DNA from: Escherichia phage BP32
Strand: one strand, 5' to 3'
Sequence record: OR906198.1
Length of the DNA stretch: 64,000 nucleotides
Below are positions 9,400 to 64,000 of the stretch, piece after piece. The notes beneath the pieces are model-generated. The model did no database searches. It was not told the origin of the DNA and saw only the letters and a list, made by a program, of their open reading frames with translations. The position numbers were made by a program, and so were the translations under genes. Numbering within the stretch: the first letter of the stretch is position 1; each line of letters starts with the position of its first letter.

Positions 9400-9611
9400 T
9401 GCTCGAAGGAACTGATTATATCCATGACTACCGCGGAAGCGCGGTATATGTGGGTGATGAGGTTGCAGTTTATTATGGGTATGGAACTTTGATGACAGCA
9501 AAGGTTATTCAAATTAAAAATGGCCGTGCTAAACTCGAAGTTTATTATTCTAATGGTGAAAAGTCTATTTCTAAATGGAAATACGGCGATTGTATGGTCA
9601 AATTGGGGTAA
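9396..9611 (+). CDS. hypothetical protein (71 aa)
   Basis: Track ORF; ATGA overlap with nrdC stop. Confidence 0.55.
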   Translation: MMLEGTDYIHDYRGSAVYVGDEVAVYYGYGTLMTAKVIQIKNGRAKLEVYYSNGEKSISKWKYGDCMVKLG

Positions 9612-9613
9612 AT

Positions 9614-9784
9614 ATGATTTACGATATTAGTGTATCAAGAACTCCGTCAATGGTTACTATTCCAGCTGAAGAATTAGATCGTCTTCAGAAAATTGAAGAA
9701 CTTCTTTGGGAAATTGAATCTGATTTGCCATCAGGATTAGAATCCTGGATTGATTATGAAGAACTTAATAAATTGCGAAATTAA
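9614..9784 (+). CDS. hypothetical protein (56 aa)
   Basis: ATG at 9614 after GGGGTAA; within track ORF 9575..9784. Confidence 0.4.
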   Translation: MIYDISVSRTPSMVTIPAEELDRLQKIEELLWEIESDLPSGLESWIDYEELNKLRN

Positions 9785-9794
9785 GTGGTGACAA

Positions 9795-17529: not shown

Positions 17530-18732
17530 ATGAAAGTATGCATTTTTATGGCTCGAGGTCTTGAAGGTTGTGGTGTAACTAAATTTTCTCTTGAGCAACG
17601 TGATTGGTTTATTAAAAATGGTCATGAAGTAACTTTGGTTTATGCTAAAGATAAATCATTTACTCGTAATTGCGCGCATGATTATAAGTCATTTTCAATT
17701 CCAGTTTTATTGGCAAAAGAATACGATAAAACACTTAAGCTGGTAAATGATTGTGATATTCTAATTATCAATTCAGTTCCTGCTACTTCAGTAGAAGAAG
17801 ACACTATTAATAACTATAAAAAAATTATTGATAACATTAAACCTTCGGTTCGTGTTGTAGTTTATCAGCATGACCATTCTTCTCTTTCTTTGCGCCGAAA
17901 TTTGGGATTAGAAGAAACTGTTCGTCGAGCTGATGTTATTTTTAGCCATTCTGATAATGGTGATTTTAATAAAGTTCTGATGAAAGAATGGTATCCGGAA
18001 ACTGTTTCTCTGTTTGATGATATTGAAGAAGCACCGACCGTATATAACTTTCAGCCTCCTATGGATATTGCGAAGGTTCGATCAACCTACTGGAAAGATG
18101 TTTCTGAAATTAACATGAATATCAACCGTTGGATTGGTCGTACTACTACATGGAAAGGCTTTTATCAGATGTTTGATTTTCACGAAAAACATCTTAAACC
18201 TGCAGGACTAAGTACTATTATGGAAGGTCTGGAACGTTCTCCAGCTTTCATTCCTATTAAAGAAAAAGGAATTCCATACGAGTATTATCGTCTTCATCAA
18301 GTAGACCAAATTAAAATTGCTCCTAATTTGCCGACGCAAATTCTCGACCGTTATGTAAATAGCGAAATGCTTGAACGCATGAGTAAATCCGGATTTGGTT
18401 ATCAGCTGAGTAAGTTGGACAAAAAATATCTACAACGTTCTTTAGAATATACTCATCTCGAGCTTGGTGCATGTGGAACAATTCCGGTATTTTGGAAATC
18501 TACGGGCGAAAATTTAAAATTCCGTGTTGATAACACTCCGTTAATTTCTCATGATAGCGGTATCGTTTGGTTTGATGAAAATGACATGGAATCAACATTT
18601 GAACGTATTAAAGAACTGTCATCTGACCGAGCTCTTTATGACCGCGAACGTGAAAAAGCTTATGAATTTTTGTATCAGCATCAAGATTCAAGCTTCTGCT
18701 TTAAAGAACAGTTTGACATTATTACAAAATAA
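17530..18732 (+). CDS. agt: DNA alpha-glucosyltransferase
   Basis: 400 aa; near-identical to my recall of T4 alpha-gt (CIFMARGLEGCGVTKFSLEQRDWFIKNGHEV...). Confidence 0.9.
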   Translation: MKVCIFMARGLEGCGVTKFSLEQRDWFIKNGHEVTLVYAKDKSFTRNCAHDYKSFSIPVLLAKEYDKTLKLVNDCDILIINSVPATSVEEDTINNYKKIIDNIKPSVRVVVYQHDHSSLSLRRNLGLEETVRRADVIFSHSDNGDFNKVLMKEWYPETVSLFDDIEEAPTVYNFQPPMDIAKVRSTYWKDVSEINMNINRWIGRTTTWKGFYQMFDFHEKHLKPAGLSTIMEGLERSPAFIPIKEKGIPYEYYRLHQVDQIKIAPNLPTQILDRYVNSEMLERMSKSGFGYQLSKLDKKYLQRSLEYTHLELGACGTIPVFWKSTGENLKFRVDNTPLISHDSGIVWFDENDMESTFERIKELSSDRALYDREREKAYEFLYQHQDSSFCFKEQFDIITK

Positions 18733-23353: not shown

Positions 23354-24040
23354 ATGAAACTGTCTAAAGATACTACTGCTCTGCTTAAAAATTTCGCTAC
23401 TATTAACTCTGGTATTATGCTTAAATCCGGTCAATTTATTATGACTCGCGCGGTTAATGGTACAACTTATGCGGAAGCAAATATTTCTGACACTATTGAT
23501 TTTGATGTAGCAATTTACGATTTGAACGGTTTTCTCGGTATTCTGTCTCTAGTTAATGATGATGCAGAAATTTCCCAGTCAGAAGATGGTAATATTAAAA
23601 TTGCTGATGCCCGTTCAACAATTTTTTGGCCAGCAGCCGATCCGAGTACAGTAGTTGCTCCTAATAAACCAATTCCATTCCCGGTAGCATCTGTTGTTAC
23701 TGAAATTAAAGCTGAAGACCTTCAACAGCTATTGCGTGTATCTCGTGGTCTGCAGATTGATACAATTGCTATCACAGTAAAAGAAGGTAAAATCGTAATT
23801 AACGGTTTTAATAAAGTAGAAGATTCTGCTTTGACTCGTGTTAAATATTCTTTGACTCTTGGTGATTATGATGGTGAAAATACATTTAATTTCATTATCA
23901 ATATGGCAAATATGAAAATGCAACCAGGAAATTATAAACTGCTGCTCTGGGCAAAAGGTAAACAAGGCGCTGCTAAATTTGAAGGTGAACATGCGAATTA
24001 TGTAGTAGCTCTTGAAGCTGATTCTACCCACGACTTTTAA
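23354..24040 (+). CDS. 45: sliding clamp gp45
   Basis: 228 aa; matches my recall of T4 gp45 (MKLSKDTTALLKNFATINSGIMLKSG...). Confidence 0.92.
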   Translation: MKLSKDTTALLKNFATINSGIMLKSGQFIMTRAVNGTTYAEANISDTIDFDVAIYDLNGFLGILSLVNDDAEISQSEDGNIKIADARSTIFWPAADPSTVVAPNKPIPFPVASVVTEIKAEDLQQLLRVSRGLQIDTIAITVKEGKIVINGFNKVEDSALTRVKYSLTLGDYDGENTFNFIINMANMKMQPGNYKLLLWAKGKQGAAKFEGEHANYVVALEADSTHDF

Positions 24041-24041
24041 T

Positions 24042-24066
24042 AAAGGGCTTCGGCCCTTTATAATTT
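24042..24066 (+). terminator. rho-independent terminator after gene 45
   Basis: AAAGGGC-TTCG-GCCCTTT hairpin followed by A/T-rich stretch. Confidence 0.65.
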
Positions 24067-24091
24067 ACACTAAAACTTGAATGAGGAAATT

Positions 24092-25051
24092 ATGATTACT
24101 GTAAATGAAAAAGAACACATTCTTGAACAGAAATATCGTCCATCTACTATCGATGAATGTATTCTTCCCGCCTTTGATAAAGAAACCTTTAAATCTATTA
24201 CAAGTAAAGGTAAGATTCCACATATTATTCTTCATTCTCCTTCTCCAGGAACAGGTAAAACAACCGTAGCAAAAGCATTGTGTCATGATGTAAATGCTGA
24301 TATGATGTTTGTGAATGGCTCAGATTGTAAAATTGATTTCGTTCGCGGTCCTTTGACCAATTTTGCTAGCGCAGCTTCATTTGATGGTCGTCAAAAAGTA
24401 ATCGTTATTGATGAATTTGACCGTTCAGGGTTAGCAGAGTCTCAGCGACATCTTCGTTCCTTTATGGAAGCTTATAGTTCAAACTGTAGTATTATTATTA
24501 CTGCTAACAATATTGATGGTATTATTAAACCACTTCAGTCACGCTGTCGAGTTATTACATTCGGTCAACCGACCGATGAAGATAAAATTGAAATGATGAA
24601 GCAGATGATTCGTCGATTGACTGAAATCTGTAAGCATGAAGGAATTGCTATAGCTGATATGAAAGTTGTAGCAGCTTTGGTTAAAAAGAATTTTCCTGAT
24701 TTTCGTAAAACTATTGGTGAGCTCGATAGTTATTCATCTAAAGGTGTTTTGGATGCTGGTATTTTATCACTGGTTACTAACGATCGTGGTGCTATTGATG
24801 ATGTTCTTGAATCTCTCAAAAATAAAGATGTTAAACAGCTCAGAGCTTTAGCACCAAAATATGCAGCTGATTATTCGTGGTTCGTAGGTAAACTTGCCGA
24901 AGAAATCTATACACGTGTAACTCCACAGAGTATTATTCGTATGTATGAAATTGTTGGTGAAAATAACCAGTATCATGGAATTGCGGCTAATACGGAATTA
25001 CATTTAGCATATCTTTTCATTCAATTGGCATGCGAAATGCAGTGGAAGTGA
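24092..25051 (+). CDS. 44: clamp loader large subunit gp44
   Basis: 319 aa from [17 protein letters not shown]; Walker A GTGKTT; matches my recall of T4 gp44. Confidence 0.92.
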
Positions 25052-25052
25052 T

Positions 25053-25616
25053 ATGAGCTTATTTGAAGATGATATTCAATTAAACGAGCATCAAGTTGCT
25101 TGGTATTCAAAAGATTGGACAGCTGTCCAATCTGCTGCTGATTCTTTTAAAGAAAAAGTTGAAAATGAATTTTTTGAAATAATTGGAGCTATCAATAATA
25201 AAATTAAATGCTCTATTGCTCAAAAAGATTATTCAAAATACATGGTTGAGAATGCATTATCACAATTTCCGGAGTGCATGCCAGCTGTATATGCTATGAA
25301 TTTAATTGGATCAGGTTTAAGCGATGAAGCCCATTTTAATTATCTGATGGCTGCTGTTCCTCGGGGTAAAAGATATGGTAAATGGGCAAAACTGGTTGAA
25401 GATTCTACCGAAGTATTGATTATTAAGTTACTTGCTAAGCGGTATCAAGTTAATACAAATGATGCAATTAACTATAAATCAATTCTTACTAAAAATGGAA
25501 AACTTCCTTTAGTATTAAAAGAACTAAAAGGTTTAGTCACGGATGATTTTTTGAAAGAAGTGACTAAGAATGTAAAAGAACAGAAACAACTCAAAAAACT
25601 AGCATTGGAATGGTAA
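25053..25616 (+). CDS. 62: clamp loader small subunit gp62
   Basis: 187 aa; immediately downstream of 44, as in T4. Confidence 0.88.
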
Positions 25617-26064: not shown

Positions 26065-28761
26065 ATGAAAGAATTTTATATCTCTATTGAAACAGTCGGA
26101 AATAGCATTGTTGAACGTTATATTGATGAAAATGGAAAGGAACGTACTCGTGAAGTAGAATATCTTCCGACTATGTTTAGGCATTGTAAGGAAGAGTCAA
26201 AATACAAAGACATTTATGGTAAAAATTGCGCTCCTCAAAAATTTCCATCAATGAAAGATGCCCGAGATTGGATGAAACGAATGGAAGACATCGGTCTCGA
26301 AGCTCTTGGTATGAACGATTTTAAACTCGCTTATATCAGTGATACATATGGTTCAGAAATTGTTTATGACCGAAAATTTGTTCGTGTAGCTAACTGTGAC
26401 ATTGAGGTTACTGGTGATAAATTTCCTGACCCAATGAAAGCAGAATATGAAATTGATGCTATCACACATTATGATTCAATTGACGACCGTTTTTACGTCT
26501 TTGATTTGTTGAATTCAATGTACGGTTCAGTATCAAAATGGGATGCAAAGTTAGCTGCTAAGCTTGACTGTGAAGGTGGTGATGAAGTTCCTCAAGAAAT
26601 TCTTGACCGAGTAATTTATATGCCATTTGATAATGAGCGTGATATGCTCATGGAATATATTAATCTCTGGGAACAGAAACGACCTGCTATTTTTACCGGT
26701 TGGAATATTGAGGGATTTGACGTTCCGTATATCATGAATCGTGTTAAAATGGTTCTCGGTGAACGTAGTATGAAACGCTTCTCTCCAATCGGTCGAGTAA
26801 AATCTAAACTAATTCAAAATATGTACGGTAGCAAAGAAATTTATTCTATTGATGGCGTATCTATTCTTGATTATTTAGATTTGTACAAGAAATTCGCATT
26901 TACTAATTTGCCATCGTTCTCTTTGGAATCAGTTGCTCAGCATGAAACCAAAAAAGGTAAATTACCGTACGATGGTCCTATTAATAAACTTCGTGAGACT
27001 AATCATCAACGATACATTAGTTATAACATCATTGACGTAGAATCAGTTCAAGCAATTGATAAAATTCGTGGGTTTATCGATCTAGTTTTAAGTATGTCTT
27101 ATTATGCTAAAATGCCTTTTTCTGGTGTAATGAGTCCTATTAAAACTTGGGATGCTATTATTTTTAACTCACTGAAAGGTGAACATAAGGTTATTCCTCA
27201 ACAAGGTTCGCACGTTAAACAAAGTTTTCCAGGTGCATTTGTGTTTGAACCTAAACCGATTGCTCGTCGATACATTATGAGTTTTGACTTGACGTCTCTG
27301 TATCCTAGCATTATTCGTCAGGTTAACATTAGTCCTGAGACTATTCGTGGACAGTTTAAAGTTCATCCAATTCATGAATATATCGCAGGAACAGCTCCTA
27401 AGCCAAGTGATGAATATTCTTGTTCTCCGAATGGATGGATGTATGATAAGCATCAAGAAGGTATCATTCCAAAGGAAATCGCTAAAGTATTTTTCCAGCG
27501 TAAAGATTGGAAAAAGAAAATGTTCGCTGAAGAAATGAATGCCGAAGCTATTAAAAAGATTATTATGAAAGGTGCAGGGTCTTGTTCAACTAAACCAGAA
27601 GTTGAACGATATGTTAAGTTCAATGATGATTTCTTAAACGAATTATCGAATTACACTGAATCTGTTCTTAATAGTCTGATCGAAGAATGTGAAAAAGCAG
27701 CTACACTTGCTAACACAAATCAGCTGAACCGTAAAATTCTTATTAACAGTCTTTATGGTGCTCTTGGTAACATTCATTTCCGCTATTATGATTTGCGAAA
27801 TGCTACTGCTATCACAATTTTTGGTCAAGTTGGTATTCAGTGGATTGCTCGTAAAATTAATGAATATCTGAATAAAGTATGTGGAACTGATGGTGAAGAT
27901 TTCATCGCAGCAGGTGATACTGATTCGGTATATGTTTGTGTAGATAAAGTAATTGAAAAAGTAGGTCTTGACCGCTTTAAAGAACAAAATGATTTAGTTG
28001 AATTCATGAATCAGTTCGGTAAGAAAAAGATGGAACCTATGATTGATGTTGCATATCGTGAGTTATGTGATTATATGAATAACCGCGAGCATCTGATGCA
28101 TATGGACCGTGAAGCTATTTCTTGTCCTCCGCTTGGTTCAAAGGGTGTTGGTGGATTTTGGAAAGCGAAAAAGCGTTATGCTCTGAACGTTTATGATATG
28201 GAAGATAAGCGATTTGCTGAACCGCATCTAAAAATCATGGGTATGGAAACTCAACAGAGCTCAACACCAAAAGCAGTACAAGAAGCTCTCGAAGAAAGTA
28301 TTCGTCGTATTCTTCAGGAAGGTGAAGAGTCTGTCCAAGAATACTACAAGAACTTTGAGAAAGAATATCGTCAACTTGACTATAAAGTTATTGCTGAAGT
28401 AAAAACTGCGAACGATATAGCGAAATATGATGATAAAGGTTGGCCAGGATTTAAATGCCCGTTCCACATTCGTGGGGTGCTAACTTATCGTCGAGCTGTT
28501 AATGGTTTAGGTGTAGCTCCAATTTTGGATGGAAATAAGGTAATGGTTCTTCCATTACGTGAAGGAAATCCATTTGGTGATAAGTGCATTGCTTGGCCGT
28601 CGGGTACGGAACTTCCAAAAGAAATTCGTTCTGATGTACTGTCTTGGATTGACTACTCAACTTTGTTCCAAAAATCGTTTGTTAAACCGCTTGCGGGCAT
28701 GTGTGAATCGGCAGGTATGGACTATGAGGAAAAAGCTTCGTTAGACTTCCTGTTTGGCTGA
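26065..28761 (+). CDS. 43: DNA polymerase gp43
   Basis: 898 aa; family-B polymerase motifs (exo FDIE, pol DTDS) ; length equals T4 gp43. Confidence 0.95.
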   Translation: MKEFYISIETVGNSIVERYIDENGKERTREVEYLPTMFRHCKEESKYKDIYGKNCAPQKFPSMKDARDWMKRMEDIGLEALGMNDFKLAYISDTYGSEIVYDRKFVRVANCDIEVTGDKFPDPMKAEYEIDAITHYDSIDDRFYVFDLLNSMYGSVSKWDAKLAAKLDCEGGDEVPQEILDRVIYMPFDNERDMLMEYINLWEQKRPAIFTGWNIEGFDVPYIMNRVKMVLGERSMKRFSPIGRVKSKLIQNMYGSKEIYSIDGVSILDYLDLYKKFAFTNLPSFSLESVAQHETKKGKLPYDGPINKLRETNHQRYISYNIIDVESVQAIDKIRGFIDLVLSMSYYAKMPFSGVMSPIKTWDAIIFNSLKGEHKVIPQQGSHVKQSFPGAFVFEPKPIARRYIMSFDLTSLYPSIIRQVNISPETIRGQFKVHPIHEYIAGTAPKPSDEYSCSPNGWMYDKHQEGIIPKEIAKVFFQRKDWKKKMFAEEMNAEAIKKIIMKGAGSCSTKPEVERYVKFNDDFLNELSNYTESVLNSLIEECEKAATLANTNQLNRKILINSLYGALGNIHFRYYDLRNATAITIFGQVGIQWIARKINEYLNKVCGTDGEDFIAAGDTDSVYVCVDKVIEKVGLDRFKEQNDLVEFMNQFGKKKMEPMIDVAYRELCDYMNNREHLMHMDREAISCPPLGSKGVGGFWKAKKRYALNVYDMEDKRFAEPHLKIMGMETQQSSTPKAVQEALEESIRRILQEGEESVQEYYKNFEKEYRQLDYKVIAEVKTANDIAKYDDKGWPGFKCPFHIRGVLTYRRAVNGLGVAPILDGNKVMVLPLREGNPFGDKCIAWPSGTELPKEIRSDVLSWIDYSTLFQKSFVKPLAGMCESAGMDYEEKASLDFLFG

Positions 28762-28774
28762 TAGAATAAATCTA

Positions 28775-28796
28775 GGGACCTCCGGGTCCCTTTTTC
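28775..28796 (+). terminator. rho-independent terminator after gene 43
   Basis: GGGACC-TCCG-GGTCCC hairpin followed by TTTTT. Confidence 0.8.
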
Positions 28797-28878
28797 ATAC
28801 AAGTAATATAAATCTATACTTAGGAAAAATAGATGATTCTGGGCCCTTTGAATTCATTAAAAATTTTTTCACAAAATG

Positions 28879-28908
28879 GTTTACATCCCGGTTCCTTTAT
28901 GGTACTAT
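28879..28908 (+). promoter_or_regulatory. T4-type early promoter
   Basis: -35 GTTTAC, -10 TACTAT; leader nearly identical to that at 2161-2194. Confidence 0.65.
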
Positions 28909-28942
28909 ATAACTATCAACTGATACGGATTTGGAGAATGAA

Positions 28943-29323
28943 ATGAAAATCGCTATTTTGGTTATTGCATTGGGTCTTACTGGTTGTGTAGCTCAAGGAC
29001 CAGTAGTAAATCAGTCTGATGTAGGAAAAATTGTAAACTGTTCAAGCAAATTTTATAATCCTAATGTTAAGTGTTATAAAGAAGCTCCAAAACAGACAGT
29101 AGAACAAATGCAGGCGAATTTTGACGAAGCTATTCGTCCAGATGAATCTGCCCAAGCATATCGTAATTCAGATGTAATTACACGCGAAGAAAAAATTGAA
29201 AGCTACTGCGCTGAACTTTGGGCTAATTGGGCTAATAATTACCAATGGCGTACTGGTAAAAATGCTCCGATGGAGTATGTAGTGAATTCTTATAATTCAT
29301 GTGTAAAAAATTTGACTAAGTGA
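28943..29323 (+). CDS. lipoprotein (imm.1-position), 126 aa
   Basis: Signal peptide with lipobox LTGC; ATG at 28943 after GGAGAATGAA; own early promoter. Confidence 0.65.
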   Translation: MKIAILVIALGLTGCVAQGPVVNQSDVGKIVNCSSKFYNPNVKCYKEAPKQTVEQMQANFDEAIRPDESAQAYRNSDVITREEKIESYCAELWANWANNYQWRTGKNAPMEYVVNSYNSCVKNLTK

Positions 29324-29330
29324 GGAAAAC

Positions 29331-29582
29331 ATGGAAACTTTAGTAGCAGGTTCAATTTTTATGGTTTTAGTTTCAGGCGTGTTGGCTATTATTATATACA
29401 TGCTTCCATGGTTCATCGCCTTGATGCGTGGGTCAAAATCGACAGTAGGAATCTTTTTTACATCTTTACTGTTTAACTGGTCAATCATTGGTTGGTTTAT
29501 TACATTTATTTGGTCAATTGCGGGTGAAACCAAAAAGTCTGCACAGCCAAATCAAGTAATTATCATCAGAGAGAAGGAATGA
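29331..29582 (+). CDS. imm: superinfection immunity membrane protein Imm
   Basis: 83 aa, two TM segments; position between 43 and 42 and length match T4 imm. Confidence 0.7.
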   Translation: METLVAGSIFMVLVSGVLAIIIYMLPWFIALMRGSKSTVGIFFTSLLFNWSIIGWFITFIWSIAGETKKSAQPNQVIIIREKE

Positions 29583-29728
29583 AAAGCAAAATTATAGCAG
29601 TGTTGCTTTTAATCTTGATGATTATAATAAGTATATACTATAGTGTAACGGTTCCTTGCATGATTCCAACTATTATTTTAGGTTGGGGTTTATTACTGTT
29701 ACAAGTTAAATATGAATGTATCAATTGA
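29579..29728 (+). CDS. small membrane peptide (49 aa)
   Basis: Hand-translated ORF MKSKIIAVLLLILMIIISIYY...; ATGA overlap with imm stop. Confidence 0.35.
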   Translation: MKSKIIAVLLLILMIIISIYYSVTVPCMIPTIILGWGLLLLQVKYECIN

Positions 29729-29735
29729 GGTTTAA

Positions 29736-30476
29736 ATGATTAGTGACTCTATGACAGTTGAAGAAATCCGTCTTCATTTGGGGCTTGCATTAAAAGAAAA
29801 AGATTTCGTAGTTGATAAAACTGGTGTTAAAACTATTGAAATTATTGGCGCATCATTTGTAGCAGATGAACCGTTTATTTTTGGCGCTCTTAATGATGAA
29901 TACATTCAGCGTGAACTTGAATGGTATAAATCTAAGAGCTTGTTTGTTAAAGATATTCCAGGTGAAACACCAAAGATTTGGCAGCAGGTAGCATCTTCTA
30001 AAGGCGAAATTAACTCGAATTATGGTTGGGCTATCTGGTCAGAAGATAACTATGCTCAGTATGATATGTGTTTAGCTGAACTTGGTCAAAATCCTGATTC
30101 TCGGCGTGGTATCATGATTTATACTCGTCCATCCATGCAGTTTGACTACAACAAAGATGGTATGTCAGATTTCATGTGTACGAATACAGTACAGTATCTG
30201 ATTCGTGATAAGAAAGTCAATGCAGTAGTTAACATGCGCTCAAATGACGTGGTCTTCGGATTCCGCAATGATTATGCGTGGCAAAAATACGTACTAGATA
30301 AATTAGTATCTGATTTGAATGCAGGTGATTCAACTCGTCAGTATAAAGCAGGTTCCATTATATGGAATGTCGGAAGCCTTCACGTGTATTCTCGTCATTT
30401 TTATTTGGTCGACCATTGGTGGAAAACTGGCGAAACTCATATTGCGAAAAAAGATTATAATGGTGAGTGGAAATGA
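29736..30476 (+). CDS. 42: dCMP hydroxymethylase gp42
   Basis: 246 aa; thymidylate-synthase-like fold; length and position match T4 gp42. Confidence 0.9.
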   Translation: MISDSMTVEEIRLHLGLALKEKDFVVDKTGVKTIEIIGASFVADEPFIFGALNDEYIQRELEWYKSKSLFVKDIPGETPKIWQQVASSKGEINSNYGWAIWSEDNYAQYDMCLAELGQNPDSRRGIMIYTRPSMQFDYNKDGMSDFMCTNTVQYLIRDKKVNAVVNMRSNDVVFGFRNDYAWQKYVLDKLVSDLNAGDSTRQYKAGSIIWNVGSLHVYSRHFYLVDHWWKTGETHIAKKDYNGEWK

Positions 30477-31315
30477 TTCAATTCGTAATTCCAAGCTATC
30501 AACGTGTAGGGGCAGTTTCTGCCCTTGATATGTTTCCATCTGATTATGAACCACATATTGTAGTACGTGAACATGAAGAAAAAGCTTATTATGACGCTTA
30601 CGGGTCTAGAGCTAAAATTATAACTATTCCTGATGATGTCAATGGAATTGCTGGTACTCGTAAAGCGATTACTGATATGTATGCAGGTCAGCGAATTTGG
30701 ATGATTGATGATGATACTACTATTCGTATGAGTTCAATGCGAAAGAAAGATGATCGTCGCTGCGTAGATAAAATTAATCAGTTAACTCGTGAACAATTCT
30801 ATGAATTGATTCAATACGTTGAAGATGCCATGGATTGCGGGTATTATCACGGTCATGCTCGTTTACCTATTTTTAAAATTACTTCATCTTGGGGTAATTA
30901 TCGTGAAAATTCATATGGATTCACGAATACATGGTATGACCTTGGAAAACTTACAACAGAACAAATTGGGTATGGAAAAATTGATTTATGCGAAGATATG
31001 TATGCATTTCTCAATTTAATTAATCAAGGTTATCCGCATTTGGCCTTGTTCAAATATCTGGTTGTATCCGGAAAAGCACAGGCTCCCGGTGGATGCAGCT
31101 CAATTCGTAGTAATTCTAAGCATAATAGAGCTCTTGAGCAAATCAATAAAGAGTTTCCAGAGCAAGCTCGTTGGAAAACTTCTAATATTGAAAAACGAAA
31201 ATCATTAGGTGAAGAAGACGAGCCATTAAAGGTTCTTCGCATGTGTGTTTCGCGCAAAGAAAAGTCAGAAGCGTTTCATAAGTTTAATGCTATTCATCCA
31301 ATAGCAGTTGATTAA
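30473..31315 (+). CDS. putative DNA glucosyltransferase in the beta-gt locus (not T4 beta-gt-like; possibly T2/T6 beta-alpha-gt type)
   Basis: 280 aa from ATG at 30473 (ATGA overlap with gene 42); sits where T4 has beta-gt (351 aa) but does not resemble my recall of T4 beta-gt. Confidence 0.55.
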   Translation: MIQFVIPSYQRVGAVSALDMFPSDYEPHIVVREHEEKAYYDAYGSRAKIITIPDDVNGIAGTRKAITDMYAGQRIWMIDDDTTIRMSSMRKKDDRRCVDKINQLTREQFYELIQYVEDAMDCGYYHGHARLPIFKITSSWGNYRENSYGFTNTWYDLGKLTTEQIGYGKIDLCEDMYAFLNLINQGYPHLALFKYLVVSGKAQAPGGCSSIRSNSKHNRALEQINKEFPEQARWKTSNIEKRKSLGEEDEPLKVLRMCVSRKEKSEAFHKFNAIHPIAVD

Positions 31316-31392
31316 TGCCTAAATTTATTGTGTTATAATTACCCTATCTTTAACCAGTGAGGAAAATATAATGATGCCTATGGAAAAAATGA

Positions 31393-32574
31393 ATGTCTAT
31401 TGCAGATTTAAAATCCCGTTTGATTAAAGCTTCCACTTCTAAAATGACTGCTGAACTGACTACATCTAAATTCTTTAATGAAAAGGATGTAATCCGTACA
31501 AAAATTCCAATGCTCAATATCGCTATTTCCGGCGCGATTGATGGTGGTATGCAGTCTGGTTTAACCATTTTTGCAGGTCCTTCTAAACACTTTAAATCAA
31601 ATATGTCTTTGACTATGGTTGCGGCGTATTTGAACAAATATCCTGATGCGGTTTGTCTATTTTATGATAGCGAATTTGGTATTACTCCAGCTTATTTGCG
31701 ATCCATGGGAGTTGACCCGGAACGAGTAATTCATACACCAATCCAGTCAGTTGAACAACTGAAAATTGATATGGTGAATCAGCTTGAAGCTATTGAGCGC
31801 GGTGAAAAAGTTATTGTATTCATCGACTCAATCGGTAATATGGCTTCTAAGAAAGAAACGGAAGATGCCTTGAATGAAAAATCTGTGGCAGATATGACTC
31901 GTGCTAAATCACTGAAGTCATTATTCCGTATTGTTACTCCTTATTTTAGTATTAAAAACATTCCATGTGTTGCGGTTAACCATACAATTGAAACAATTGA
32001 AATGTTTAGTAAAACCGTGATGACAGGTGGTACAGGCGTAATGTATTCGGCTGATACTGTATTCATTATCGGTAAGCGTCAGATTAAAGATGGTTCTGAT
32101 CTTCAGGGGTATCAATTTGTTCTAAATGTAGAAAAATCTCGTACCGTCAAAGAAAAAAGTAAATTCTTTATTGATGTTAAATTTGACGGTGGTATCGATC
32201 CTTATTCTGGATTGTTAGATATGGCTCTTGAATTAGGATTTGTAGTAAAACCTAAAAATGGTTGGTATGCTCGTGAATTTCTTGACGAAGAAACCGGCGA
32301 GATGATTCGCGAAGAAAAATCTTGGCGCGCAAAAGATACCAATTGCACTACATTCTGGGGTCCTTTATTTAAGCATCAACCATTCCGAGATGCTATTAAA
32401 CGTGCTTATCAGTTAGGTGCTATTGATAGTAATGAAATTGTTGAAGCTGAAGTCGACGAATTGATTAACTCAAAGGTTGAAAAATTTAAATCTCCAGAAA
32501 GTAAAAGTAAATCAGCAGCTGATTTAGAAACTGACCTAGAACAGTTAAGTGGTATGGAAGAATTTAATGAATAA
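31393..32574 (+). CDS. uvsX: RecA-like recombinase UvsX
   Basis: 393 aa; near-identical to my recall of T4 UvsX (ADLKSRLIKASTSKMTAELT ... Walker A GPSKHFKS). Confidence 0.92.
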   Translation: MSIADLKSRLIKASTSKMTAELTTSKFFNEKDVIRTKIPMLNIAISGAIDGGMQSGLTIFAGPSKHFKSNMSLTMVAAYLNKYPDAVCLFYDSEFGITPAYLRSMGVDPERVIHTPIQSVEQLKIDMVNQLEAIERGEKVIVFIDSIGNMASKKETEDALNEKSVADMTRAKSLKSLFRIVTPYFSIKNIPCVAVNHTIETIEMFSKTVMTGGTGVMYSADTVFIIGKRQIKDGSDLQGYQFVLNVEKSRTVKEKSKFFIDVKFDGGIDPYSGLLDMALELGFVVKPKNGWYAREFLDEETGEMIREEKSWRAKDTNCTTFWGPLFKHQPFRDAIKRAYQLGAIDSNEIVEAEVDELINSKVEKFKSPESKSKSAADLETDLEQLSGMEEFNE

Positions 32575-34594: not shown

Positions 34595-34837
34595 ATGCAT
34601 ACGGTTTTATTTAAACCTACTCCGTATAATGTTAGGAAAAATACTCAATTCAAAGCACTTGTTGCAGATACGTGGGAATTGGTGTTAGATATTCCAGCAG
34701 AAGAAAGTCCTCCATTTGGTCGAGTGGAATTTATTAAGTTTGCTGTGCGCCCTACGAAGCGACAGATTCGTCAATGCAAAAGATACTTTCGTAAAATCGT
34801 CAAGTTAGAGAAACAGTTATTGATGCTAGTAAAATAG
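34595..34837 (+). CDS. hypothetical protein (80 aa), 61.x block
   Basis: In-frame ATG at 34595 within track ORF 34550..34837. Confidence 0.5.
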   Translation: MHTVLFKPTPYNVRKNTQFKALVADTWELVLDIPAEESPPFGRVEFIKFAVRPTKRQIRQCKRYFRKIVKLEKQLLMLVK

Positions 34838-34839
34838 TA

Positions 34840-34869
34840 GTTTACAAGCTGATAGAGTTGTGTTATAGT
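34840..34869 (+). promoter_or_regulatory. T4-type early promoter
   Basis: -35 GTTTAC, -10 TATAGT flanked by inverted repeat GCTGATAG / CTATCAGC. Confidence 0.6.
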
Positions 34870-34900
34870 AATTCTATCAGCTAATCGCGGAGAAAAGAAA

Positions 34901-35155
34901 ATGATGCTAGTTAATAGAGAATATCAGTTTAAATCAGAAGAAGATTTGGAAAAATTCGCAAGTGGTTGTGAACTGAATAGACGCACAGCTAAAGTCATAG
35001 GATTAAAACCCTTTACAGTTCTAGATTGTGAAGTTTCTAAATTCCGCAGAGGGTGTTCTATTAGCGGTCATGCTCTGGTTGATGGGAACACATTTTTCTT
35101 TGTTTTTAGCGTCAGAGAACTTTTATTGATTAACGAACTTGAGGAAATAAAATAG
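34901..35155 (+). CDS. hypothetical protein (84 aa), 61.x block
   Basis: Track ORF; own early promoter. Confidence 0.55.
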   Translation: MMLVNREYQFKSEEDLEKFASGCELNRRTAKVIGLKPFTVLDCEVSKFRRGCSISGHALVDGNTFFFVFSVRELLLINELEEIK

Positions 35156-37015: not shown

Positions 37016-38355
<1,340 letters not shown>

Positions 38356-46422: not shown

Positions 46423-46923
46423 ATGAAAATTTATCGTGTTGAATCATCTTTTAGTATTCTTAATTGTGAAGATGCTATAACAATACGTCGAAATCTTTGT
46501 GTTCAAATAACGCCATACAGGAGTATAATAGATTCATGGAGCGAAGAGTGGTTATTACACGTAGGTTATGACAGACCTAATTTTATGCATCATAGCGATG
46601 ATAATAAAAGAATTCCTTTACCACACGAAGATAAACTATTAGTTAAAAACGCTAATATAGTAATTAATACTAAGTTCAAGAAAGATTATGTTGGAGTAGA
46701 ATATCATATTCCAGGATGGTTTATAGCTCTTTATCATTTTGCTTTCGCTAGTGAATATGATATGATGAGATGGTTCACACGAGAAGAGCGGGAAGAATTA
46801 TCTTCTAAAGGATTTTATCTCGCTGTATACGAAGTTTCTGAAGATGAAGTTATCATTGGCGGGCACCAAGTAATGTTCCGCAAATCGCATGCTGAACTCA
46901 TAGATTTTATTGAAATGAGATAA
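46423..46923 (+). CDS. hypothetical protein (166 aa), T4 motB position
   Basis: ATG at 46423 after GAGGATAATAAA; T4 MotB is about 162 aa; identity by position only. Confidence 0.5.
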   Translation: MKIYRVESSFSILNCEDAITIRRNLCVQITPYRSIIDSWSEEWLLHVGYDRPNFMHHSDDNKRIPLPHEDKLLVKNANIVINTKFKKDYVGVEYHIPGWFIALYHFAFASEYDMMRWFTREEREELSSKGFYLAVYEVSEDEVIIGGHQVMFRKSHAELIDFIEMR

Positions 46924-46925
46924 TT

Positions 46926-47468
46926 ATGAAATTTAATTATAATCCTGAATACATACCAAATCCGGTAGCTAAACTGATTGATTTTGATGTTGTAAGCACT
47001 TATGTATGCCCTGTTAAACCACTGGAAATTAAGGAACCTACTATGACTACCGCTATTGAAATCGGCAAAACCTACAAACTGGTTGAACCTGAAATTAAAA
47101 CTAATGCCTTGATTTCCGGCCATAAAACTCTGACTGATGTTTTTGGCGAAGGCGAATTTACTGTTGAAGACTTTGAAAAAAGTAAATGGTTTACTAAATC
47201 TTATATTGTACACGGTCGTCGTTTAGACAATAACAAAATAGAGAAAATCCTGGTTTATGAAGCAGAGTTCATCCTGTTCCAAGAAGTTGAAGAACAAGAC
47301 CCTACAGACCTTCTAACTCGTGCGGTAGCTATCAAGACTCCATTTATTTCAGTCTGTGGTTGGGTAACAGACCAGTGGATTGAAGATGGTGTTGAACTTC
47401 TGAACGTTGTTCATGCAGGTGATTTTAGTGTAGTACCTCGTAGTGCGGTGGTAGCTATTTTGAATTAA
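46926..47468 (+). CDS. hypothetical protein (180 aa), paralogue of next gene
   Basis: Track ORF; C-terminus VTDQWIEDGVELLNVVHAGDFSVVP resembles next ORF. Confidence 0.6.
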   Translation: MKFNYNPEYIPNPVAKLIDFDVVSTYVCPVKPLEIKEPTMTTAIEIGKTYKLVEPEIKTNALISGHKTLTDVFGEGEFTVEDFEKSKWFTKSYIVHGRRLDNNKIEKILVYEAEFILFQEVEEQDPTDLLTRAVAIKTPFISVCGWVTDQWIEDGVELLNVVHAGDFSVVPRSAVVAILN

Positions 47469-49229: not shown

Positions 49230-49601
49230 ATGTTTAAAATCGGTAAGAAATATCGTGTTCGCGAAGGTGAAGAAAAGAAATATCTACTTTCTTCTATTTA
49301 TAGGAATAGTTCTATTAATACTGTAATATCTACAAGCGAATTTATCGTTGAAGATATGAAAGGTCATAATGTTACAATGATTAGTACAGCATCTGGAAAT
49401 GATGGAAAAATTCTTCACAGCTTTCAGAGTAATGTTCTAATTTATGATGAAGAATTTGACTTCTTCGAAGAAGTTACAGAAGATTTTGATTTTGGATGCA
49501 CCATCACTATGAAATCTGGTGACCCTCTTTCATTTACGGTTAAAGATGAAAGAAGTCGCTTGAGAATTATTAGTCTTCTTCAAGCCATTAAATTTGAGTG
49601 A
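49230..49601 (+). CDS. hypothetical protein (123 aa)
   Basis: Track ORF. Confidence 0.6.
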   Translation: MFKIGKKYRVREGEEKKYLLSSIYRNSSINTVISTSEFIVEDMKGHNVTMISTASGNDGKILHSFQSNVLIYDEEFDFFEEVTEDFDFGCTITMKSGDPLSFTVKDERSRLRIISLLQAIKFE

Positions 49602-49605
49602 AATT

Positions 49606-63368: not shown

Positions 63369-64000
63369 TTATACTCTTGGACCATATATTGCTCCAACGT
63401 TTTGCCATGTCGGTGTAGACCCTATGACGGCATAACCAGCAGCACCGCCATCGTATTCATATCCTTGACCACGAATATTACATCTACCTCCTGCGGAGCC
63501 AACTTCACCACCAGACCCGCCGCTATAGATACCGTTCACAGACCCTGCGCCAGGCGCAGAAATAGTACCAGCAGTTGCTCCTGATTGCATATCAATAGAT
63601 CCGCCCGGCGCGCCAAACGGACGACCGCCACCACCGCCAAAGGTCAATCTCATTTGTGAAAAAGGAGAATAATATCCGCCGCCGCCGCCGCCACCGCCGC
63701 CAGCAATAGCTCCGCCATTATTAATTCTTAGTCTCCCACCAATATCATTTTGAATACAATGACCCCCAGCTGAGCCAGGACTATTGCTACCGCCATTACC
63801 GCCACGGCCATACATCGTTACACCATGTATATTCAGTTGAACATATTCATTCGGTGTATCTCCGTACATGAAGAATAAAGGAACATCTTTAGAATATGAT
63901 ACTAAATCTCCAGTGATATTAAACACTATAGGTGCACTACCTGCCTCAAAACATCTATCTCGGAACCATTGGCCATTGAAGTTATGGTCTGCTCCAAGCG
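63369..64000 (-). CDS. 38: long tail fibre tip adhesin gp38, T2/T6 type (partial; N-terminus beyond window end)
   Basis: Minus-strand frame open to the window edge; poly-glycine motifs ([16 protein letters not shown]) separated by variable segments. Confidence 0.75.

Follow-up and report, generated by a model that had tools for sequence, protein, structure and literature searches.

A predicted T2/T6-type beta-glucosyl-HMC-alpha-glucosyltransferase gene in the T4 beta-gt slot of Escherichia phage BP32

The gene for the beta-glucosyl-HMC-alpha-glucosyltransferase (ba-gt, also termed ggt or g-gt) was sequenced in phages T2 and T6 decades ago. Both phages make gentiobiosyl-hmC via homologous beta-alpha glucosyltransferases (Thomas et al. 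2018, PMC6024577), and when ba-gt is deleted from T6 the gentiobiosyl-hmC is lost, only alpha-glucosyl-hmC is found and the sensitivity to Brig1 goes up (PMC11078745). The Brig1 glycosylase and BapA have alpha-glucosyl-hmC as their target, and gentiobiosyl-hmC is resistant to both (PMC11078745; bioRxiv 10.64898/2026.02.25.707755); BapA frees glucose from the DNA of T6 delta-g-gt and not from T6 DNA (bioRxiv 10.64898/2026.02.25.707755). The family to which these enzymes belong, TAGT, has been modelled with a GT-A fold and placed as sister to GT2, and an alpha-GT or a beta-GT paired with a TAGT is the common arrangement; the pairing of alpha-GT with beta-GT was found in only 6/753 phage genomes, those of T4 and its close relatives (PMC13216743).

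The Tequatrovirus phages of the Durham collection encode alpha-GT and TAGT like T6 does (PMC13390438). HPLC-MS of Solly, QOTSP, BGP and others with this pair of enzymes, the TAGT gene lying between gene 42 and uvsX, detected 5-hmC, alpha-glucosyl-hmC and alpha-gentiobiosyl-hmC and no beta-glucosyl-hmC (PMC13390438). The gentiobiosyl fraction is low in T2 (∼5%), intermediate in BGP, Geo and EL (∼40%) and high in Solly and QOTSP (about two-thirds) and in T6 (∼70-72%) (PMC13390438; bioRxiv 10.64898/2026.02.25.707755).

We have analysed a 64,000-nucleotide stretch of Escherichia phage BP32 (record OR906198.1), the whole of which is called the window here. It is part of a Tequatrovirus genome and has ∼97% identity to many deposited phages. 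One of its genes (ba-gt in Table 1) almost certainly encodes a T2/T6-type beta-glucosyl-HMC-alpha-glucosyltransferase of the TAGT family, with a predicted role in the transfer of the second glucose. The identity, fold, motifs, synteny and absence of beta-gt from the window come from this analysis, and the product chemistry and the defence phenotype are those reported in the literature for near-identical genes. Published work already covers the fold, the consequences for defence and the slot replacement, the last of these stated explicitly in relation to T4 beta-gt in papers of 2026, and ba-gt is named in hundreds of GenBank records; the gene adds no discovery to these.

The slot between gene 42 and uvsX

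The ba-gt ORF is intact from its ATG at 30473 to its TAA at 31313-31315, and an in-frame GTG at 30467, the longer start in the ORF list, would give a product of 282 aa. The ATG and the TGA stop of gene 42 share 4 nt (ATGA), in the context GGAAATGATT, and 77 nt lie between the end of ba-gt and the start of uvsX. This is the 280-aa ORF that the first-pass annotation had placed between gene 42 and uvsX, with its start overlapping the gene 42 stop, and the ORF coordinates, the Pfam matches and the nucleotide identity to T4 all agree with that description. Furthermore, the slot holds ba-gt with the same 4-nt overlap in T2, T6 (NC_054907), Solly, BGP and teqskov.

Table 1. Positions of ba-gt, its sequence motifs, its genomic context and the compared loci
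Feature	Position	Strand	Evidence or remarks
alpha-gt, DNA alpha-glucosyltransferase	17530..18732	+	PF11440 E = 2.4e-236; 91% aa identity to T4 and T6
GIY-YIG-type homing endonuclease, 207 aa	18909..19532	+	PHROG 10820 and 314; weak Pfam GIY-YIG match
gene 42, dCMP hydroxymethylase	29736..30476	+	Pfam Thymidylat_synt 5e-16; 96% nt identity to T4 gene 42
Cassette without T4 homology, 946 nt, in place of T4 beta-gt and segA	30459..31404	+	blastn, window against T4
ba-gt / ggt / TAGT gene	30473..31315	+	280 aa; ORF, PF20691, PHROG 842, aa identity, predicted GT-A fold
GAT GAT GAT codons (D79-D80-D81), putative DXD-type metal/nucleotide-sugar binding motif	30707..30715	+	Conservation in 50 homologues
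E174-D175 codons, candidate catalytic-base region	30992..30997	+	D175 invariant in 50 distant homologues
uvsX recombinase	31393..32574	+	Pfam T4_UVSX_C 4.7e-39 and RecA; 92% nt identity to T4
186-aa ORF	37016..37576	+	PHROG 8706 (unknown function); absent from T4
dam	37576..38355	+	
T2-type Gp38 tail-fibre adhesin	63369..63926	-	PF05268 E = 9.4e-56; window end
Compared ba-gt locus, T2 MH751506	L002:3001-3843		
Compared ba-gt locus, T6 MH550421	L003:7138-7980	-	
Compared ba-gt locus, T6 NC_054907	L005:301-1140		

According to blastn, the homology to T4 stops at 30458 (T4 25497, still 18 nt short of the gene 42 end) and restarts at 31405 (T4 23555, just within uvsX), and the T4 counterpart of the intervening cassette is a segment of 1941 nt (T4 23556-25496) with beta-gt and the homing endonuclease segA. 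Judged from these alignment boundaries, the slot is a clean cassette replacement. The annotation had also seen no resemblance to T4 beta-gt, which was borne out, as a BLASTP comparison of the ba-gt product (280 aa) with T4 beta-gt (351 aa) yielded random fragments only (best E = 3.3) and PF09198 is absent from the ba-gt Pfam matches at E <= 0.1. Moreover, tblastn of T4 beta-gt over the 64-kb window revealed no beta-gt homologue (best E = 1.5), and T4 segA is absent from the same 64 kb. In two respects we place the emphasis differently from that annotation: most Tequatrovirus phages share the arrangement of the window, from which T4 departs (PMC13216743), and the T4 segment replaced includes segA too.

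T4 beta-gt (GT63, PF09198, PDB 1JG7) and the window ba-gt have the slot in common. Use of UDP-glucose as the donor and formation of a beta linkage are also common to both. In contrast, their sequences are unrelated, the T4 enzyme has a two-domain GT-B structure and ba-gt a predicted GT-A one, the acceptor is 5-hmC itself in the first case and alpha-glucosyl-hmC in the second, and segA is carried by the T4 cassette and not by that of the window.

A promoter and terminator scan of positions 28700-31500 gave AT-rich consensus matches at background level only, among which no dedicated ba-gt promoter was assignable, and the sole + strand 'terminator' near ba-gt (30507-30527) falls within coding sequence. 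As no promoter could be assigned, the probable co-transcription of ba-gt with gene 42 is something that we infer, together with a probable translational coupling of the two genes via the ATGA overlap.

Family, predicted fold and conserved residues

The ba-gt protein matches Pfam PF20691 (TET-associated glycosyltransferase, TAGT) with 38.8 bits against a gathering score of 27.5, over profile positions 2-205 of 205, and PHROG 842 ("beta-glucosyl-HMC-alpha-glucosyltransferase") over its full length (E = 6.5e-89). Its protein identity is 100% to vB-Eco-KMB39, 98.6% to Solly, 97.9% to T2 and 97% to T6 (these two over the full length) and 96.8% to BGP; the best DNA match of the gene has 97.7% nucleotide identity and 100% protein identity. 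The T2 and T6 genes resemble that of the window in the length of 280 aa and the co-occurrence with alpha-gt as well, and the Durham TAGT genes (Solly and BGP) show the same synteny. The T2/T6 beta-alpha-glucosyltransferase was the identity proposed in the first-pass annotation, and these identities, the two family matches and the common slot sustain it. In addition, megablast found 474 phage records with ba-gt at >=90% nucleotide identity, many of them naming it beta-glucosyl-HMC-alpha-glucosyltransferase, and tblastn found it in 690 records that include T4-like phages of Klebsiella, Enterobacter and Salmonella at 63-66% identity.

Four differences (S23T, K92R, I101V, and K226R) separate the window enzyme from that of Solly, all conservative and none at a conserved site, and the window's own substitutions with respect to the consensus of the compared relatives (S23, K92, I101, and K226) are at these positions and conservative too. 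At the codon level, the Solly and window genes have 41 synonymous and 4 non-synonymous differences. Because synonymous changes far outnumber non-synonymous ones, the function appears to be maintained, and the codon comparison indicates that ba-gt is a real gene under purifying selection.

The TAGT family has neither a solved structure nor a sequence-level relative in the PDB. Searches of the PDB with the single ba-gt sequence or with a 50-sequence profile returned nothing beyond noise, for example a de novo TIM barrel (E = 0.0012) that has no significant domain. AlphaFold2, run on an alignment of 11 sequences, gave a model (mean pLDDT 82, pTM 0.84) of a single alternating beta/alpha domain with three low-confidence loops (89-101, 134-139, and 202-205). 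When this model was compared with the PDB by Foldseek there were 215 matches at E <= 1e-3, and the best 50 of the 215 are all GT-A glycosyltransferases, including AvpGT, WrtF, RmlT, TarS, TarP, K4CP (K4 chondroitin polymerase) and PcManGT, with a probability of 1.0, TM scores of 0.44-0.52 and 10-14% identity. The predicted fold of ba-gt is thus GT-A, in a confident model and not a solved structure. Pfam Glycos_transf_2 (CAZy GT2) did not match ba-gt, so that its likeness to GT2 lies at the level of the fold and not of the sequence; no NCBIfam model matched TAGT, alpha-gt or the restriction-enzyme-like ORF that is described below.

R11, D80, D175, G186 and G207 are invariant across 50 TAGT homologues, down to 20% identity, and I6, P7, E35, R63, D79, D81, G206, R212 and P229 are >=90% conserved in the same set. 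All the family-invariant residues are present in the window ba-gt. The three aspartates at 79-81 presumably form a DXD-type motif, which metal-dependent GT-A enzymes are expected to have, and D175 is a candidate for a catalytic role by analogy with inverting enzymes of the GT2 type; the adjacent E174 is >=90% conserved among the 11 close homologues in which it was checked. The N-terminal IPSYxR motif resembles the first strand of GT2 enzymes. Cellular GT-A enzymes of the GT2 family (TarP, TarS, RmlT, K4CP, WrtF, and AvpGT) are similar to ba-gt in predicted fold (TM scores of about 0.45-0.52), in this strand motif and in the DXD motif, but they have only 10-14% identity to it and the ba-gt acceptor is a sugar on DNA. 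Inverting GT2-like enzymes acting on UDP-alpha-glucose produce a beta linkage. Such a mechanism would agree with the beta-1,6 bond of gentiobiose.

The reference stocks of T2 and T6 deviate from the consensus at positions where the window allele keeps it. R11, invariant in the 50 distant homologues, is changed to histidine (CGT to CAT) in 8/8 T2 records. In T6 MH550421 codon 10 has become amber (TAG in place of CAG) and the annotation begins at M20, and in T6 NC_054907/AP018814 a 3-nt deletion has removed one GAT from the GATGATGAT run, converting DDD to DD. At each of these sites the window ba-gt agrees with the consensus. There might be a connection between R11H and the 5% gentiobiosyl-hmC of T2, as compared with the 72% of T6.

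Since T4 has its beta-gt between gene 42 and uvsX, position could suggest that ba-gt is a diverged T4-type beta-gt (GT63, GT-B), which would attach one beta-glucose to 5-hmC itself. Nothing in the protein itself points in that direction: the BLASTP E values are 3.3 or worse and PF09198 is absent, its 280 aa fall short of the 351 aa of T4 beta-gt, the prediction is a single-domain GT-A and not a two-domain GT-B, and phages with ba-gt show no beta-glucosyl-hmC by HPLC-MS (PMC13390438). We consider this identity vanishingly improbable, and it was rejected on BLASTP, whole-window tblastn and the GT-A matches of Foldseek. Similarity to T4 beta-gt and the presence of a glycosyltransferase fold were the points that the first-pass annotation had singled out for checking its proposal; no such similarity was found and the fold is predicted (GT-A, by Foldseek).

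It is also very improbable that ba-gt is a TAGT of another specificity in the window phage, adding a different sugar, using bare 5-hmC as acceptor or being an inactive relic. The breadth of the family (354 TAGT cluster representatives at E <= 1e-3 in an exhaustive HMMER search) would allow for this, as would the members present in phages with neither alpha-gt nor beta-gt (PMC13216743) and the lesions at conserved positions in laboratory stocks of T2 and T6, which indicate that the gene can decay. However, the window enzyme has just the four conservative differences from that of Solly, a phage with about two-thirds gentiobiosyl-hmC in its DNA (PMC13390438), its invariant residues are all intact, and the ratio of 41 synonymous to 4 non-synonymous changes argues for a maintained function. 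All these data favour a T2/T6-type beta-glucosyl-HMC-alpha-glucosyltransferase, which is the identity followed below.

Alleles of alpha-gt and other mosaic features of the window

The window alpha-gt had been called T4-like in the first-pass annotation, in accordance with its PF11440 match (Table 1) and with the 364/400 residues that are identical to T4 (365/400 to T6). This gene exists in two allele classes that are ∼9% apart in protein sequence. The window allele is >=99% identical in 419 phage records, and the T4/T6/BGP allele is ∼91% identical to it (35-36 aa differences), with 62 records at 90-95%. The window alpha-gt is 99.5% identical to that of QOTSP and has 35 aa differences from that of BGP.

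A 186-aa ORF lies upstream of dam, and its stop codon and the start of dam overlap. The ORF is shared by 163 phage records, T2 and BGP among them, and its match to the Pfam DpnII restriction endonuclease is below threshold (17.8 bits where the cut-off is 23 bits; E = 0.0022). GATC is the recognition site of both DpnII and Dam. The BGP counterpart has been termed a 'restriction enzyme-like gene', and the pair that it forms with Dam is listed for the group of BGP, Geo and EL (PMC13390438). With respect to the Durham phages, the window mixes both groups, as it has this pair of genes together with an alpha-gt of the QOTSP type: its TAGT is closest to Solly and its alpha-gt to QOTSP, both of high gentiobiosyl content, and its Dam and restriction-enzyme-like pair matches BGP and T2, of intermediate or low content.

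Several other segments depart from T4. The homing endonuclease occupies the interval from alpha-gt to gene 47, which in T4 contains the small ORF 47.1, and the segment 18916-19509 has no T4 homology. The Gp38 adhesin replaces the T4-type gp38 assembly chaperone, in a region that has no T4 nucleotide homology; the first 30 positions of the profile are not matched by its ORF (match from position 31), so the gene may in fact start further upstream, close to the edge of the window. Short segments with no T4 nucleotide match (1-1067, 9401-9787, 34819-35147, 46912-47355, and 49233-49603) contain small ORFs of unknown function, which include PHROG 1502 and 944 at 102-1072, a MotB-like ORF at 46926-47468 and PHROG 622 at 49230-49601. 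These short segments are typical T-even mosaic variation.

Predicted DNA chemistry and its meaning

The two genes that would supply the acceptor of ba-gt are both in the window, gene 42 for hmC and alpha-gt for alpha-glucosyl-hmC. In the proposed pathway, gp42 would produce hydroxymethyl-dCMP, which would be built into the DNA in place of cytosine, and alpha-gt would then move glucose from UDP-glucose to the 5-hmC of the DNA in alpha linkage. The resulting alpha-glucosyl-hmC would be the acceptor for ba-gt, a GT-A enzyme that is presumably metal-dependent and inverting and that would add a second glucose beta-1,6 to the first one, yielding gentiobiosyl-hmC. Because the window has no T4-type beta-gt, the DNA is predicted to lack beta-glucosyl-hmC and to contain a mix of bare 5-hmC, alpha-glucosyl-hmC and gentiobiosyl-hmC. 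A beta-gt accompanying alpha-gt beyond the 64-kb window is unlikely, since the T4 copy occupies the gene 42-uvsX slot and the pairing is very rare.

The proportions of the three bases are another matter. Near-identical enzymes are associated with gentiobiosyl fractions from 5% to ∼70%, so those of the window phage are not predictable from its enzyme, and the mixture of features from the Durham groups likewise means that the modified-base ratio cannot be read off from them. In the window, a TAGT of consensus sequence that is free of lesions accompanies the majority alpha-gt allele (91% identical to the T4/T6/BGP allele), a pairing unlike that of any characterised phage, and it might give a glucosylation ratio or a sequence-context pattern absent from T2, T6 and the Durham phages, which we regard as improbable. 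If this were true, a comparison with the lesion-bearing stocks of T2 (R11H) and T6 might show what sets 5% as opposed to 72% gentiobiosyl-hmC.

Finally, altered glycosylation and evasion of defences have been seen in T6 and in the Durham phages, which have near-identical genes (PMC11078745; PMC13390438; bioRxiv 10.64898/2026.02.25.707755). For a T-even phage, the sugar type carried by hmC determines the host defences that it can evade. Recognition of ba-gt in a genome therefore predicts the chemistry of the phage DNA, together with a part of the host-range and defence profile, and is useful for annotation and for the choice of phages for therapy.
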